A stretch of DNA of 64,000 nt from Escherichia coli (GTDB lineage Bacteria > Pseudomonadota > Gammaproteobacteria > Enterobacterales > Enterobacteriaceae), in assembly GCF_045037415.1 (NCBI RefSeq), contig NZ_CP173438.1. One strand, written 5' to 3'. Of this stretch, positions 9,382 through 58,665 are shown piece after piece. Each line of letters starts with the position of its first letter. Position 1 is the first letter of the stretch. A model generated the notes under the pieces. That model did no database searches, was not told the DNA's origin, and saw only the letters and a program-made list of their open reading frames with translations. The translations under genes and the position numbers were made by a program.

Positions 9382-9561
9382 ATGTTTGCAGGTTTACCTT
9401 CACTCACCCATGAACAGCAGCAAAAAGCCGTCGAGCGGATCCAGGAACTGATGGCACAAGGGATGAGCAGCGGCCAGGCAATCGCGCTGGTGGCAGAAGA
9501 GCTGCGTGCCAACCATTCCGGCGAGCGAATCGTGGCGCGTTTTGAGGATGAAGACGAGTAA
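9382..9561 (+). CDS. yoaH: small protein YoaH (UPF0181), 59 aa
   Basis: Not in ORF track (under 60 aa). ATG at 9382 preceded by AGGAG (9371-9375); translates [59 protein letters not shown], stop 9559-9561. Confidence 0.85.
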
Positions 9562-14366: not shown

Positions 14367-16052
14367 TTGAAGAAGGTTTGGCTTAACCGTTATCCCGCGG
14401 ACGTTCCGACGGAGATCAACCCTGACCGTTATCAATCTCTGGTAGATATGTTTGAGCAGTCGGTCGCACGCTATGCCGATCAACCCGCGTTTGTGAATAT
14501 GGGGGAGGTGATGACCTTCCGCAAACTGGAAGAACGCAGTCGCGCGTTTGCCGCTTATTTGCAACAAGGGTTGGGGCTGAAGAAAGGCGATCGCGTTGCG
14601 TTGATGATGCCTAACTTATTGCAATATCCGGTGGCGCTGTTTGGCATTTTGCGTGCCGGGATGATCGTCGTAAACGTTAACCCGTTGTATACCCCGCGTG
14701 AGCTTGAGCATCAGCTTAACGATAGCGGCGCATCGGCGATTGTTATCGTGTCTAACTTTGCCCACACTCTGGAAAAAGTGGTTGATAAAACCGCCGTTCA
14801 GCACGTTATTCTGACCCGTATGGGCGATCAGCTATCTACGGCAAAAGGCACGGTAGTCAATTTCGTTGTTAAATACATCAAGCGTCTGGTGCCGAAATAC
14901 CATCTGCCAGATGCCATTTCATTTCGTAGCGCCCTGCACAACGGCTACCGGATGCAGTACGTCAAACCAGAATTGGTGCCGGAAGATTTAGCTTTCCTGC
15001 AATACACCGGCGGCACCACTGGTGTGGCGAAAGGCGCGATGCTGACTCACCGCAATATGCTGGCGAACCTGGAACAGGTTAACGCGACCTATGGTCCGCT
15101 GTTGCATCCGGGCAAAGAGCTGGTGGTGACGGCGCTGCCGCTGTATCACATTTTTGCACTGACCATTAACTGCCTGCTGTTTATCGAACTGGGAGGGCAG
15201 AACCTGCTTATCACTAACCCGCGCGATATTCCAGGGCTGGTAAAAGAGTTAGCGAAATATCCGTTTACCGCTATCACTGGCGTTAACACCTTGTTCAATG
15301 CGTTGCTGAACAATAAAGAGTTCCAGCAGCTGGATTTCTCCAGTCTGCATCTTTCCGCAGGCGGTGGGATGCCTGTTCAGCAAGTGGTTGCAGAACGTTG
15401 GGTTAAACTGACTGGACAGTATCTGCTGGAAGGTTATGGCCTGACCGAGTGCGCGCCGCTGGTCAGCGTTAACCCGTATGATATTGATTATCATAGTGGT
15501 AGCATCGGTTTGCCGGTGCCGTCGACGGAAGCCAAACTGGTGGATGATGATGATAATGAAGTACCACCTGGTCAACCAGGTGAGCTTTGTGTCAAAGGAC
15601 CGCAGGTGATGCTGGGTTACTGGCAGCGTCCGGATGCTACCGATGAAATCATCAAAAATGGCTGGTTACACACCGGCGACATCGCGGTGATGGATGAAGA
15701 AGGATTCCTGCGCATTGTCGATCGTAAAAAAGATATGATTCTGGTTTCCGGTTTTAACGTCTATCCCAACGAGATTGAAGATGTCGTCATGCAGCATCCT
15801 GGCGTACAGGAAGTCGCGGCTGTTGGCGTACCTTCCGGCTCCAGTGGTGAAGCGGTGAAAATCTTCGTAGTGAAAAAAGATCCATCGCTTACCGAAGAGT
15901 CACTGGTGACCTTTTGCCGCCGTCAGCTCACGGGCTACAAAGTACCGAAGCTGGTGGAGTTTCGTGATGAGTTACCGAAATCTAACGTCGGAAAAATTTT
16001 GCGACGAGAATTACGTGACGAAGCGCGCGGCAAAGTGGACAATAAAGCCTGA
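14367..16052 (+). CDS. fadD: long-chain-fatty-acid--CoA ligase
   Basis: ORF 14301-16052; K-12-length product (561 aa) starts at TTG 14367 ([24 protein letters not shown]...) after AGAGGTGAAG; AMP-binding signature [14 protein letters not shown]. Confidence 0.95.
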
Positions 16053-16071
16053 GCGTTAAGTCAGTCGTCAG

Positions 16072-16097
16072 ACGCCGGTTAATCCGGCGTTTTTTTT
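16072..16097 (+). terminator. rho-independent terminator of fadD
   Basis: ACGCCGG-TTAAT-CCGGCGT stem-loop followed by TTTTTTTT, 20 bp after the fadD stop. Confidence 0.7.
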
Positions 16098-17332: not shown

Positions 17333-17665
17333 TTGAGCTTAACGCCAAATGCGCTCGACACCACGACGAGTAAATACCGATTCCTGAATGACGACTTCAT
17401 TCTCTGTTCCTTCATTCACTCTACCGCCTGGCGAGGAATATTCGCCTTCGGTGTTTTTCCGGACCACGTAAAAATCGATGTCGCCAGGCTGTTTCCCGCC
17501 AGTGGTCATTTAGTACAAGTGCTACCGGAATATTACCAGCCAGCGAATGTCTGGGCCGTTTATGTTTCAAAGCTGTCGACGTCAGCGAAAGTGCGGATAA
17601 CGGTAGAATTTTTACGCCAGTATTTTGCCGAGCACTACCCGAATTTTTCACTGGAGCATGCCTGA
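17333..17665 (+). pseudogene. 3'-terminal fragment of a LysR-family regulator gene (dmlR/yeaT-like remnant)
   Basis: 110-codon ORF whose C-terminal two-thirds ([60 protein letters not shown]) has the layout of a LysR effector-domain C-terminus; frame closed by TGA at 17324-17326; no N-terminal HTH domain; sits where K-12 has dmlR upstream of leuE. Confidence 0.4.
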
Positions 17666-19602: not shown

Positions 19603-19677
19603 TTACCACCATCCCAGCTCAGTGCCGAGTACGACAATAATCGCCACACCCATCATAATAATCGTTGTTTTTTTCAT
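19603..19677 (-). CDS. yoaJ: small membrane protein YoaJ, 24 aa
   Basis: Not in ORF track. Minus strand reads ATGAAAAAAACAACGATTATTATGATGGGTGTGGCGATTATTGTCGTACTCGGCACTGAGCTGGGATGGTGGTAA = MKKTTIIMMGVAIIVVLGTELGWW. Confidence 0.8.
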   Translation of the reverse strand: MKKTTIIMMGVAIIVVLGTELGWW

Positions 19678-19679
19678 CT

Positions 19680-19778
19680 TTATGCTCCCGGGGCAGCATA
19701 GCCGCCAATAAAAAACCATGCTAAAAATACGACCGCTGTAATAAAGATTACAACCGGAAAAATAATACCGATTCGCAT
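19680..19778 (-). CDS. yoaK: small membrane protein YoaK, 32 aa
   Basis: Not in ORF track. Minus strand translates MRIGIIFPVVIFITAVVFLAWFFIGGYAAPGA; its stop lies 2 bp upstream of the yoaJ start codon. Confidence 0.8.
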   Translation of the reverse strand: MRIGIIFPVVIFITAVVFLAWFFIGGYAAPGA

Positions 19779-22974: not shown

Positions 22975-23796
22975 ATGATGCACAGGTTGAATCTCAATGG
23001 CTATGAACCCGACCGACACCATGAAGCCGCGGTCGCATTTTGTATTCACGCCGGAACGGATGAGTTAACCAGTCCTGTACATCAGCACCGCAAAGGGCAG
23101 TTGATACTGGCACTACATGGTGCAATTACCTGTACGGTAGAAAATGCTTTGTGGATGGTGCCGCCACAATATGCGGTTTGGATACCGGGCGGGGTGAAAC
23201 ATAGTAATCAAGTGACAGCTAACGCCGAACTCTGTTTTCTGTTTATCGAGCCCAGCGCAGTGACAATGCCGACAACATGTTGCACATTGAAAATATCGCC
23301 CTTATGCCGGGAATTAATTTTAACCCTGGCAAACAGGACGACGACTCAGCGTGCTGAGCCGATGACCCGCAGATTAATTCAGGTCCTGTTTGATGAACTC
23401 CCTCAGCAACCACAACAACAGCTGCACTTGCCCGGTTCTTCTCATCCTAAAATCCGCACGATGGTGGAGATGATGGCGAAAGAGCCCGTCGAGTGGGGCT
23501 CATTGAGGCAATGGGCTGGCTTTTTTGCGATGAGTGAACGCAATCTTGCCCGGCTGATAGTGAAAGAGACGGGGTTGAGTTTTCGCCAGTGGCGTCAGCA
23601 GTTACAGCTGATTATGGCGCTTCAGGGATTAGTGAAAGGCGATACTGTACAGAAAGTTGCTCATACACTGGGGTATGATTCAACAACGGCCTTTATTACT
23701 ATGTTTAAGAAAGGCCTGGGGCAAACGCCAGGCCGATATATTGCGGGATTAACTACTGTTTCCCCACAATCAGCGAAACCAGACCCGCGGCAATAA
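22975..23796 (+). CDS. yeaM: AraC-family transcriptional regulator (NimR)
   Basis: 273-aa [52 protein letters not shown]...; C-terminal AraC HTH; divergent from yeaN. Confidence 0.93.
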
Positions 23797-24199
23797 GCGG
23801 GCCAACCGGTACGCCGCGAAACAGCGCCACGCCTAAAACAGTGCCCACCAGCAGCCCGGCGACCAGTTGCGGCTGGCTGCCCATTAACGTCACGCCGCGC
23901 CCCCCCAGCCAGGAGACAATAACGCCGACTGCAATTGCCACCAGCGATTTCCAGTTCAGAAACGAGTGAATCAGGGTTGAGGGCGGTAGCGTCCCGCTGG
24001 CGATGGGGGCCATAACGCCAATCGTCAGAATGATTATCCCGATACTTAGCCCCTGTTTTTCAATCCACGGGAAAAAGGTGCTTAACGGTGTGACGCGGAC
24101 AATAATCAACACCAGAATTGAAACGGCGACAGTGGTGTTATGACTGATAAAGCCCAGCGCAGCTAACCCGAGCAGGATCAGCAAAGTGACATCAAACAT
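23753..24199 (-). CDS. yeaL: UPF0756 inner-membrane protein
   Basis: 148-aa [54 protein letters not shown]...; 3' end overlaps yeaM 3' end by 44 bp. Confidence 0.92.
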
Positions 24200-24300
24200 C
24201 GTGGTTTCCTTGCCAAAAAATAATAAGCCTGCTTACTTTACGCTTGCTGCAGGCAGGAAGTAGAAAATCTTTACGTTTTTTGCATAAAAAATCAGACGAA

Positions 24301-24318
24301 CTGTCATCAAACTGCCAT
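24301..24318 (+). promoter_or_regulatory. Pho box (PhoB binding site) upstream of yoaI: CTGTCAT-CAAA-CTGCCAT
   Basis: Two direct 7-bp repeats spaced 4 bp, matching the Pho-box consensus CTGTCAT-N4-CTGTCAT at 13/14 positions, about 50 bp upstream of the yoaI ATG. Confidence 0.5.
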
Positions 24319-24368
24319 TTGTGTACGTTAACAATAACGTGAAAACAGCTATCTCCCGGGGGCATACT

Positions 24369-24473
24369 ATGAACGATCAAATGTTCGTCGAGACACTGAT
24401 TATCACGTCATCGTTTTTTGCCATTGCTGCTGTGCTGGTTTTGTCCGTTCTGCTTATTGAACGGACAGGCTAG
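24369..24473 (+). CDS. yoaI: small membrane protein YoaI, 34 aa
   Basis: Not in ORF track. ATG 24369 to TAG 24471-24473 translates [34 protein letters not shown]; single predicted TM helix. Confidence 0.8.
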
Positions 24474-24977
24474 TTACGCAGTGCGGCGGAAATTGACCAG
24501 TTCTGGTTGCGCAATACGCAAATAATCCGCGGTTTTCAAAATAACGGATTTATCCAGCATGCCTGCATTGAAGGCGATTTCATCAAATCGTTCGAAGAGT
24601 AGGGGGTCGGCAACCAGTTTGAGTTTTGGATGGAAGCTGAAAGGGGGGATCGCGCCGAAGACACAGCCTGTGAGTTCATCGACTTCCGCCGGGCTGGCCA
24701 ACGAAGCGCGTAATCCGCCTATATGGCTGGCGAGTTGGCTCAGATCGGCCTGTTGATCGGCAGCGAGGATCGCCAGAACATGTTGATTTACGCCATTGCC
24801 TTTGACTTTACATACCAGTGCCTTAGCCCCCTGGCCTAAAGCGGTGCCACGAATTTCTGACACTGCTTCACATTTACCTACCGCTTCATGGGTAACGACG
24901 CGGAAGTTAGCACCTTCTTGTGATAATAAAGCGATTAACCGCTGATGCGTCACGCTTCCTTTAGCCATTTCAGTCAT
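24474..24977 (-). CDS. yeaK: YbaK-family mischarged aminoacyl-tRNA deacylase
   Basis: 167-aa ORF MTEMAKGSVTHQRLIALLSQEGANFRVVTHEAVGKCEAVSEIRGTALGQG...; its stop codon abuts the yoaI stop. Confidence 0.93.
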   Translation of the reverse strand: MTEMAKGSVTHQRLIALLSQEGANFRVVTHEAVGKCEAVSEIRGTALGQGAKALVCKVKGNGVNQHVLAILAADQQADLSQLASHIGGLRASLASPAEVDELTGCVFGAIPPFSFHPKLKLVADPLLFERFDEIAFNAGMLDKSVILKTADYLRIAQPELVNFRRTA

Positions 24978-36124: not shown

Positions 36125-36538
36125 ATGGCTAATAAACCTTCGGCAGAAGAACTGAAAAAAAATTTGTCCGAGATGCAGTTCTACGTGACGCAGAATCATG
36201 GGACAGAACCGCCATTTACGGGTCGTTTACTGCATAACAAGCGTGACGGCGTATATCACTGTTTGATCTGCGATGCCCCGCTGTTTCATTCCCAAACCAA
36301 GTATGATTCCGGCTGTGGCTGGCCCAGTTTCTACGAACCGGTGAGTGAAGAATCTATTCGTTATATCAAAGACTTGTCACATGGAATGCAGCGCATAGAA
36401 ATTCGTTGCGGTAACTGCGATGCCCATCTGGGCCATGTCTTTCCTGACGGGCCGCAGCCAACGGGCGAACGTTATTGTGTTAACTCTGCTTCTTTACGCT
36501 TCACTGATGGCGAAAACGGCGAAGAAATCAACGGTTGA
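36125..36538 (+). CDS. msrB: peptide methionine sulfoxide reductase B
   Basis: ORF 36095-36538; K-12-length product (137 aa) begins [33 protein letters not shown]...; zinc CxxC pairs ([16 protein letters not shown]). Confidence 0.94.
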
Positions 36539-36579: not shown

Positions 36580-36852
36580 ATGAATCTTGATGACATTATC
36601 AACAGCATGACGCCTGAGGTATACCAGCGTTTGTCGACCGCCGTTGAACTGGGGAAATGGCCTGATGGCGTTACGTTGACCGAGGAACAAAAAGAGAACT
36701 GCCTGCAACTGGTGATGCTGTGGCAAGCCCGCCATAATACCGAAGCACAGCATATGACAATTGACACAAATGGTCAGATGGTCATGAAGAGCAAACAGCA
36801 GTTAAAAGAAGATTTTGGTATCTCAGCAAAGCCTATTGCCATGTTTAAGTAA
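36580..36852 (+). CDS. yeaC: DUF1315 family protein
   Basis: ORF 36535-36852; K-12-length product (90 aa) begins MNLDDIINSMTPEVYQRLSTAVELGKWPDG...; AGGAGCGG upstream. Confidence 0.9.
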   Translation: MNLDDIINSMTPEVYQRLSTAVELGKWPDGVTLTEEQKENCLQLVMLWQARHNTEAQHMTIDTNGQMVMKSKQQLKEDFGISAKPIAMFK

Positions 36853-47826: not shown

Positions 47827-48549
47827 TTAATCCTGCAACGCATAGGTTACGGTGGTGACTACGCGTACCGTTTTATTAATCGCCGTAGGATCATCTTCAT
47901 CACTGCCACTGGCGAAGATCTGGAACACGCCTTGTGAGGCATCGCTAATTGACCCCACCTGGCTACCTGAGTCCGTTGCAAATTGTAATGCTGCGTTGCG
48001 TGCATCTTTGGTGGCGGCGGCAATCATCTCAGCGCGCAGTGCGCCAATACCATTAAAGCGATAGGCGACTTTGCTCTCAGCGATAGCGCCCTCCGTAGCG
48101 ACTTGCAGTTCGTTTAATTTCGCGACGACTTTTTCGACAGCAGCAACATTATGGGTTTTTATCGTCACTGACCCGTCTGCGTTATAGCGTGGCATTGTGG
48201 GATCATCTTTCAGATAAAAGGAATCTGTTCGCTTGCTTGTCCATTGGCCCAGGGTTATCTCTTTCTCGTTAATCCCCTGAGCATTGAGTTCGGCAACAAT
48301 TTTTTTCTGCGCGTCTTCCAGTTTCGGGAACAGTTCGCCGGGAATATTACCCTTAAAGTTAATCGCAATTGTTAATTCTGCCGTATCTGCGCGAACTTCT
48401 TTTTCAGAAAGCCCACGCACATTTACATAACGGTTATTGGTTTTTAAATGTTTAACACCATCGCCAACAAAATAACCACAGGCGCTAATCCCCAGTCCGA
48501 GGACGATAGCGGCAATTAAAGAGGGGGCCTTATTCACTGATGACTCCAT
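47827..48549 (-). CDS. predicted lipoprotein with SIMPL/DUF541-like periplasmic domain (not at this position in K-12 as I recall it)
   Basis: Open frame 47827-48639 (270 codons); most plausible start ATG 48549 gives 240 aa MESSVNKAPSLIAAIVLGLGISACGYFV... with a signal peptide and lipobox (ISA|C); C-terminal ALRAEMIAAATKDARNAALQFATDSGSQVGSISDAS resembles the SIMPL (YggE-like) fold; no strong Shine-Dalgarno seen. Confidence 0.65.
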   Translation of the reverse strand: MESSVNKAPSLIAAIVLGLGISACGYFVGDGVKHLKTNNRYVNVRGLSEKEVRADTAELTIAINFKGNIPGELFPKLEDAQKKIVAELNAQGINEKEITLGQWTSKRTDSFYLKDDPTMPRYNADGSVTIKTHNVAAVEKVVAKLNELQVATEGAIAESKVAYRFNGIGALRAEMIAAATKDARNAALQFATDSGSQVGSISDASQGVFQIFASGSDEDDPTAINKTVRVVTTVTYALQD

Positions 48550-57357: not shown

Positions 57358-58665
57358 TTATTTACTGCTGTCCGGGCCGCGTTCACCGGTTGCTACCGGA
57401 TTTTTTGGATCGCTGCTCCATTCGTACCAGCCACCGTCGTAAACGGAGACGTTATTCCAGCCCATTGCGCGTGCGTACATAAAGGTTTCTGACGCGCGCC
57501 AGCCAGTGCCGCAGTAGAATGAAACTTGCTGATCTGGTTTGATATTCCATGCTTTCCACATAGCGGTTATATCATCGGCGCTGCGCATGGTGCCATCCGG
57601 GTTATGGAAATCTTCCATATGCGTCGAGTCGCTACCTGCGTGTCCCCAACGTGCTCCGGCTATTTCACCTTTTGGTTTAATATAGCTGTAACCGCTGGTC
57701 GTACCGATAAATTCTGGCCACGAACGAATGCTCACCAGCGATGCATCCTGGCGATGCAGCAGTCCACGCGCTTGTTCCATATCAAGCATCAGTTGCGGTT
57801 GTGCCGGGATCTTCACGCCGAAATCCGGTTCCGCTTTCACTTTCGGTGGCGTACCGCGCTCAACGGGCAGACCCGCGTCGGACCAGGTTTGCCAGCCTCC
57901 GTCCAGCAGGCGCACATCTTTCACGCCGGCATAAAGCATAATTTGCGCCACACGCGCTGCAGCGTATACGTCACGCCCGTACAGAATGACCGTGGTGTCA
58001 TGGCGAATGCCGTGTTTTGCCAGCATCGCTTTCAGTTGTTCATCAGAAACTTTGTTCCACAGCGGTTCGCTTTCCACTTCGTTGGTGTCGATGTAGTCAG
58101 CGCCGGGAATATGGCTGATAAGGTAAAATTTTGGAGCGCCCCAGGCCGCTTCAATGACTTTCCAGTCACCGGCAGGTTTCGCCGTAACCTCTTTACCTTG
58201 TTGCAGGTCATGCAGCCACTGCGGATATACCAGCTGTTCAAAGTGCGGCAGTTTTTGCAGACGGGAAGGTTCGCTTAGCGCGTCACTCAGGATGGAGATA
58301 TGCGTAAAACCTGCTTTTTGCAGTCGCGTTTTGACGGCGTCGACATCTTTGTCATTACCGTACAGTGCCACCGGGGCATCGGCTTTCAGGTTATGTTGCT
58401 TGATCCACTCGTTGAGCTGTTCGGTGCTCATTTTGTCGAGCCAGCTAGCAGAGAGGTTTAAGGCGGCAGGTTCATGACCGGAAGGGCCATTTAAGGTTTG
58501 TGGCCAGCCGTTATAAAACGCGCTGGGGCGAGTATCTATCGCTTTGCCATTTTGTTGTTGAAGCTGGTCAAGTGTAAGAGGCTTCGCCAGTTCAGCGGCC
58601 CACGAAGAAGCGCAAGCCAGCCCTAAAGCCATTGCCAGCGCGGTCATTTGAGAAACACGTTTCAT
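57358..58665 (-). CDS. ynjE: periplasmic thiosulfate sulfurtransferase (multi-rhodanese)
   Basis: ORF 57358-58680; K-12-length product (435 aa) begins MKRVSQMTALAMALGLACASSWAAELAKPL...; CGTGWR rhodanese active-site loop. Confidence 0.92.
   Translation of the reverse strand: MKRVSQMTALAMALGLACASSWAAELAKPLTLDQLQQQNGKAIDTRPSAFYNGWPQTLNGPSGHEPAALNLSASWLDKMSTEQLNEWIKQHNLKADAPVALYGNDKDVDAVKTRLQKAGFTHISILSDALSEPSRLQKLPHFEQLVYPQWLHDLQQGKEVTAKPAGDWKVIEAAWGAPKFYLISHIPGADYIDTNEVESEPLWNKVSDEQLKAMLAKHGIRHDTTVILYGRDVYAAARVAQIMLYAGVKDVRLLDGGWQTWSDAGLPVERGTPPKVKAEPDFGVKIPAQPQLMLDMEQARGLLHRQDASLVSIRSWPEFIGTTSGYSYIKPKGEIAGARWGHAGSDSTHMEDFHNPDGTMRSADDITAMWKAWNIKPDQQVSFYCGTGWRASETFMYARAMGWNNVSVYDGGWYEWSSDPKNPVATGERGPDSSK

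Follow-up and report, generated by a model that had tools for sequence, protein, structure and literature searches.

The Pho box is defined as at least two tandem 7-bp repeats of the CTGTCAT type with an A/T-rich linker of 4 bp (PMC3511308). In the promoters of pstS, phoA, phoB, phoH and ugpB, two such repeats, 4 bp of A/T-rich sequence apart, overlap the -35 element or take its place. The pstS and ugpB promoters carry two or three Pho boxes. A different kind of described system is represented by SafA, PmrD, MzrA and MgrB, for which one two-component system controls transcription and the protein made targets the sensor kinase belonging to a different one (PMC11429745, PMC12648545).

The gene considered here, yoaI, has published links to both. 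Earlier evidence from O157:H7 is credited to Yoshida et al. 2012 and Chekabab et al. 2014 (PMC10294691), and Z2828/YoaI appears with 5.68- and 4.86-fold values in the O157:H7 table of the effects of phosphate starvation and phoB inactivation (Chekabab et al. 2014, PMC3978041). In K-12, yoaI RNA was 12,266 in the wild type versus 28 in the phoB deletion (log2 8.8, q 7e-210), occupancy of RNA polymerase and sigma-70 at yoaI was lower in the deletion, and the PhoB site was reported to be conserved in related species (PMC10294691). A PyoaI-YFP reporter was induced in low phosphate only with phoB present (Vellappan et al. 2025, PMC11429745). The same work detected SPA-tagged YoaI, expressed from the chromosome, on a western blot, and from published work the protein is located in the membrane with its C-terminal tail in the cytoplasm (PMC11429745). 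In low magnesium the YoaI protein increased posttranscriptionally and independently of PhoQ; moreover, YoaI of the K-12 allele bound EnvZ in a two-hybrid assay and stimulated the OmpR-dependent omrB promoter, and the substitutions E31A and E31Q abolished both the EnvZ interaction and omrB activation (PMC11429745). The link with EnvZ comes from the two-hybrid and reporter data of one laboratory, in which deletion of yoaI shifted omrB just 1.4- to 2-fold (PMC11429745). In what follows, we rely on this literature for the binding of PhoB, induction that depends on PhoB, the recruitment of RNA polymerase, the interaction with EnvZ and the low-magnesium up-regulation.

We analyzed a 64-kb stretch of the E. 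coli chromosome, hereafter the window, which differs from E. coli strain SK1144 by 2 mismatches. Our own contribution is the reading of its sequence: from it come the open reading frame (ORF) and the family to which it belongs, the hydrophobic segment, the box with its promoter geometry, and the conservation across genera. The region is almost certainly E. coli yoaI together with its PhoB-activated promoter, and we found no evidence contradicting this explanation. Both the gene and the PhoB site are already known, having been published between 2012 and 2025, and neither is overlooked or unrecognized. The features of the locus are, in window coordinates:

23753..24199, minus strand: yeaL, DUF441 inner-membrane protein (Pfam DUF441, 151 bits), divergent from yoaI across a 169-bp intergenic region
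24280..24285, plus strand: weak half-site-like TTGCAT, located 5' of the first half-site of the Pho box by exactly 22 bp, or two helical turns
24301..24318, plus strand: Pho box CTGTCAT-CAAA-CTGCCAT (CTGTCAT 24301-24307, CAAA 24308-24311, CTGCCAT 24312-24318), PhoB dimer site by matrix score and match to a published ChIP-seq site
24330..24335, plus strand: -10-like AACAAT, called from sequence only, with the alternative register TAACAA at 24329-24334
24341..24343, plus strand: predicted transcription start, placed by geometry about 7 nt past the -10, which would make the 5' UTR about 27 nt long
24358..24362, plus strand: Shine-Dalgarno-like GGGGG, read directly, 6 nt ahead of the ATG
24369..24473, plus strand: yoaI coding sequence, 34 aa plus TAG (ATG at 24369, stop at 24471-24473), single-pass small membrane protein (RefSeq WP_000999628.1, NF041475)
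24442..24467, no strand assigned: perfect 9-bp inverted repeat TGTCCGTTC/GAACGGACA with an 8-nt loop, in the last yoaI codons
24474..24977, minus strand: yeaK, mischarged aminoacyl-tRNA deacylase (Pfam tRNA_edit, 95.5 bits), convergent with yoaI

Compared with K-12 yoaI (b1788), the locus has the same neighbors in the same gene order (yeaL / yoaI / yeaK-dgcJ), the same Pho box and -10 region, the same length of 34 aa and the same stop-to-stop junction with yeaK, and it differs by 11 substitutions in 311 bp, with V21A as the sole amino-acid change. Position 21 is a variable transmembrane position, and the homologues from Citrobacter and Enterobacter likewise have Ala there. Of 5426 complete E. 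coli genomes, 5411 carry the locus, and a 371-bp piece around yoaI is 100% identical to many of them; K-12 and 3-4 other sampled E. coli lineages share exactly the same Pho box and -10. Like the classical Pho regulon promoters, that of yoaI has two 7-bp repeats with a 4-bp spacer in the place of a -35 element, and published data report strong PhoB-dependent activation. Unlike them, it has a single box with CTGCCAT as second repeat and a low ChIP enrichment, and its product is a signaling peptide rather than a protein of phosphate acquisition. With SafA, PmrD, MzrA and MgrB the likeness is one of functional role, with no claim of sequence similarity; YoaI departs from them in being much shorter (34 aa), in connecting PhoR-PhoB to EnvZ-OmpR, and in being raised posttranscriptionally in low magnesium as well.

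The original prediction had proposed a 34-codon gene, yoaI, missing from the ORF track of the window. The ORF at 24369-24473 encodes exactly the peptide that had been put forward, and RefSeq annotates yoaI at this position; the track omits it solely on account of its 60-aa display threshold. The identity of the gene is also borne out by the NCBIfam equivalog model NF041475, "small membrane protein YoaI", which matches residues 1-34 over model positions 1-34 of 34 with 79.8 bits (E 1.1e-22; curated cutoff 45 bits). Kyte-Doolittle hydropathy, averaged over 19 residues, peaks at 2.59 in one segment covering residues 10-30, and the C-terminal tail is short and charged, ending in ERTG. A Pfam-A scan of the 34-aa peptide returned no family, and YoaI homologues have a precomputed match to PF23689, a Pfam family named YldA. 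YldA, a 29-aa small membrane protein, has its own NCBIfam model, NF041476, which YoaI matches weakly (20.3 bits, E 4e-4); as this score is below the YldA cutoff of 45, YoaI is related to YldA at the level of a paralogue, without being its equivalog.

Homologues were sought by a search with the 50-aa GTG-extended frame as query, by phmmer on cluster representatives, and by look-ups of contigs by exact sequence, of which the one for P0028 gave no result. The phmmer search was exhaustive, covering 1.84 billion cluster representatives, and returned 20 clusters of YoaI homologues; those with names come from Escherichia/Shigella, Citrobacter, Enterobacter and Pseudescherichia. Among 12 homologues, M1, D3, E8, T9, L10, I12, F16, S26, V27 and E31 are invariant. 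Ser26, Val27 and Glu31 were reported as invariant in 57 YoaI orthologues (PMC11429745), and the YoaI of the window carries all three.

The original prediction also described a direct repeat, CTGTCAT-CAAA-CTGCCAT, about 50 bp upstream of the gene, and read it as a PhoB box. The repeat is indeed there, with 50 nt (24319-24368) between its end and the ATG, and it has the tandem repeats and the 4-bp linker of the Pho-box definition. Sixteen of its 18 positions agree with the 18-bp consensus CTGTCATAWAWCTGTCAY, and the 7-bp repeats contain a single mismatch, a C for T in the second. In a search with CTGTCATNNNNCTGTCAT allowing up to 2 mismatches, the window gave 2 matches against 0.31 expected, and the yoaI repeat was the only one with 1 mismatch. 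We then used a matrix made from 58 published PhoB ChIP-seq sites (PMC10294691), with the yoaI site left out. Scoring of this type had been suggested together with the original prediction, and it gave 16.3 bits for the yoaI box. No other match on either strand of the 64 kb scored as high, and among the 59 bound sites the box ranks 19th, ahead of ugpB, amn, phnC and phoE. In Markov simulations of 64-kb sequences, about 15% contained a site reaching 16.3 bits; for the correct strand of the 169-bp yeaL-yoaI intergenic region, the chance expectation is about 2e-4. In K-12, a PhoB ChIP-seq peak at coordinate 1874218 has the site TGTCATCAAACTGCCATT, identical to 24302-24319 of the window (Fitzgerald et al. 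2023, PMC10294691). The enrichment score of yoaI is in the lowest class, 1 versus 38 for pstS, in an experiment in which the tagged PhoB was only partly functional (PMC10294691).

The second-best match to the matrix, TTTAATATAGCTGTAACC, is located at 57676-57693 (plus strand, 15.5 bits) inside ynjE. The K-12 table has no PhoB ChIP-seq peak at ynjE (PMC10294691), so this site probably only resembles a PhoB site and is either unbound or inert. The same table contains a PhoB-bound region inside yeaC, with a score of 5 and no motif identified (PMC10294691); in the window, the best matrix match near yeaC (36580-36852) reaches 12.3 bits at 36364-36381, inside msrB.

Downstream of the Pho box, AACAAT starts 11 nt past its end, or TAACAA 10 nt past it. 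The arrangement found, in which the box would replace the -35 and a -10 follows at promoter distance, is that of a PhoB-activated promoter. The exact -10 and a start near 24342 are predictions from this spacing. A promoter scan of 24100-24700 found no consensus pair of sigma-70 -35 and -10 elements, which fits an activator-dependent promoter and is not evidence against one. The fold computed for the predicted yoaI mRNA (24342-24520) has a z of -1.9, with 8 of 200 shuffles as stable. The inverted repeat at 24442-24467 is followed by no T-run on either strand, is absent from Enterobacter-type homologues and is unconserved beyond E. coli; it is probably incidental. As the fold is unexceptional and the repeat is not conserved, we do not claim any mRNA structure in yoaI.

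We also looked at contigs encoding divergent YoaI proteins, scanning the 200 nt 5' of each start in nine distinct lineages, which cover 62-100% protein identity and include the named Enterobacter and Pseudescherichia proteins. In each of the nine, the best plus-strand PhoB match was placed 40-51 nt ahead of the ATG. Box scores are 15.0-18.4 bits in eight of them and 9.6 bits in Pseudescherichia, because there the second half-site is shifted. Best matrix scores on the minus strand upstream of yoaI are 4-11 bits across lineages. A -10-like hexamer follows the box after 9-11 nt; the block aligns with CATAAT, ATCAAT or TAAAAA in other lineages, with one invariant A. A purine-rich GG/GGGG block stands ahead of the ATG in every lineage (9/9). 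Over the whole promoter alignment the mean identity is 54%, and the nine invariant columns are GTCAT and CA in the half-sites, the A of the -10 block just mentioned, and a G within the ribosome-binding region. The neighbors of yoaI differ by lineage, being yeaL/yeaK, an MFS transporter with yeaH-yeaG, or an MFS transporter with a TonB-dependent receptor, and the box stays with yoaI in each type of neighborhood.

One promoter variant was observed within the species. In E. coli SL124, an IS5-like ISKpn26 element is located directly before CTAACAAT (equivalent to about 24326; locus L020, 330-447), and, as read at this junction, the insertion removes the Pho box from the SL124 yoaI promoter. In another E. 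coli, a hybrid ORF of 71 aa (P0002) holds the same IS-derived sequence.

Other explanations of the locus have to be considered. The repeat could be an inert or chance PhoB-like site, with yoaI expressed independently; most of the 65 PhoB-bound regions of K-12 show no detectable regulatory effect (PMC10294691), a site as good or better occurs somewhere in about 15% of the simulated sequences, and the 15.5-bit match inside ynjE is not among the published bound regions. The yoaI repeat, however, is correctly oriented, is suitably spaced from a -10 where no -35 is present, and is kept at the same position across genera though the flanks diverge. Moreover, yoaI RNA is about 440-fold lower without phoB, together with a lower RNA polymerase occupancy (PMC10294691), and the published PyoaI-YFP reporter is PhoB dependent (PMC11429745), which is the behavior under phosphate limitation that the original prediction had proposed to look for in a yoaI fusion. 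We consider an inert site highly improbable, and the published RNAseq of the phoB deletion and the reporter data refute it in practice. It is just as hard to believe that the box serves the divergent yeaL instead of yoaI, or the two genes together. The box does lie in the intergenic region that the two genes share, and the ChIP-seq table names the site yoaI/yeaL (PMC10294691), but the direct repeat points towards yoaI, the -10-like element comes next on the plus strand, and the best minus-strand matrix score in the intergenic region is only 5.8 bits. Furthermore, yeaL RNA showed no PhoB dependence (36 vs 67, q 0.28; PMC10294691), and in Enterobacter-type loci the box remains with yoaI where yeaL is no longer its neighbor.

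Even less credible, to the point that we give it almost no weight, is that the true product is a longer protein or that the frame is untranslated. With a minimum of 20 aa, the ORF listing does contain a frame at 24321..24473 (plus strand) with a GTG start and 50 aa, of which the final 34 residues are YoaI, and gene callers gave yoaI versions of 50-94 aa in several genomes. This GTG would nevertheless lie 5' of any transcript from the yoaI promoter, being placed between the Pho box and the -10, and the N-terminal extensions vary in length and sequence in every lineage while the 34-aa core, from M-N-D onward, is conserved. The ATG at 24369 has its own ribosome-binding site, GGGGG, and the 34-aa YoaI matches the 34-position NCBIfam model end to end. 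We therefore rejected the 50-aa product, its GTG being inside the promoter and its extensions unrelated among lineages. Detection of tagged YoaI by western blot (PMC11429745) argues against an untranslated frame. Each of these readings is contradicted by orientation, conservation and published RNA data. The agreement of matrix score, promoter geometry, conservation in nine lineages and published K-12 experiments upholds the original reading of the repeat as a PhoB box, acting on yoaI.

On its 3' side, yoaI meets yeaK. The two stops abut with zero intergenic bases, exactly as had been stated from the sequence. The genes dgcJ, yeaK and yeaL are all on the minus strand, and yoaI is embedded among them on the opposite strand. 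Terminator scans found no terminator-like site on either strand near the abutting stops. With no intergenic bases and no terminator, the yoaI and yeaK transcripts are expected to overlap, and transcription of yoaI should run antisense into yeaK. The pair yeaK-yoaI is among the 165 convergent excludons found by RNAseq of MG1655 (PMC12288877). PhoB-driven (~440-fold) transcription of yoaI may thus serve to switch YeaK to a lower level on phosphate starvation, through convergent interference. In the published data, yeaK RNA was 389/413 in the wild type versus 709/655 in the phoB deletion (log2 -0.8, q 0.0115, below the significance threshold; PMC10294691); this 1.7-fold lower level in the wild type would fit convergent interference but is not significant and is suggestive only. 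On the other side of the locus, nimR (plus strand) and yeaL (minus strand) overlap convergently by 44 nt (23753-23796), with a terminator-like hairpin for the minus strand at 23734-23713, inside nimR; yeaL-nimR is also catalogued as a convergent excludon (PMC12288877).

Upstream of the box, the best half-site within 40 nt is at offset -22 in 7 of 9 lineages, as (A/T)TTCA(T/C) with 5.1-7.2 bits. The hexamer is seen in the window and in loci L006, L009, L010, L013, L014 and L015, and that of the E. coli window is degenerate (1.6 bits). A full second Pho box at this place was rejected, considering that 18-mers at -22 score at most 4.7 bits and that the hexamer has no partner half-site. The conserved hexamer without a partner suggests an unusual arrangement of three PhoB half-sites, decayed in E. 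coli, as far as the alignment allows to read it. Taken jointly, an antisense phosphate-starvation switch of yoaI on yeaK and a three-half-site PhoB arrangement form a tentative proposal that we regard as rather unlikely.

Several other features of the window were recorded. At 17342-17665, between rnd and leuE, remnants of dmlA (tartrate dehydrogenase) and dmlR (LysR regulator) are present as pseudogenes; the same contiguous arrangement is found in 1048 of 5426 E. coli genomes, the others carrying yeaX...dmlA-dmlR, and the loss of dmlA/dmlR is a lineage-specific deletion. A gene for a SIMPL-domain protein (47827-48537, minus strand), located between ansA and sppA, occurs in only 943 of the 5426 complete E. 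coli genomes; the K-12 derivative TOP10 lacks it. The sRNA sroD (16011-16096, plus strand), at the 3' end of fadD, is the only Rfam match of the window at gathering score (115 bits), and no tRNA genes were found in the 64 kb. Annotated genes below 60 aa also include yoaL (2382-2540), yoaH (9382-9561), yoaJ (24 aa, 19603-19677) and yoaK (32 aa, 19680-19778). The 60-aa threshold of the ORF track thus conceals several annotated small proteins of the window: yoaI, yoaJ, yoaK, yoaL and yoaH. The yoaI gene can also be taken as a positive control, as a reading of raw sequence can recover a true small gene together with its regulator.

In conclusion, the published data and the sequence of the locus support the following mechanism. 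Upon phosphate limitation, PhoR would phosphorylate PhoB, and phosphorylated PhoB would bind as a head-to-tail dimer to the repeat at 24301-24318, in place of a -35 element, and recruit sigma-70 RNA polymerase, with transcription starting near 24342. The resulting mRNA would have a short leader with the GGGGG ribosome-binding site, and the ATG at 24369 would open the 34-codon frame. The 34-aa peptide would insert in the inner membrane by a single pass, and its tail, with the invariant Glu31, would contact EnvZ and increase the EnvZ-OmpR output. The envelope and osmotic response would thereby become coupled to phosphate starvation. This biology is not new here, and it is of current interest, with a peptide of 34 aa that may join PhoR-PhoB with EnvZ-OmpR.
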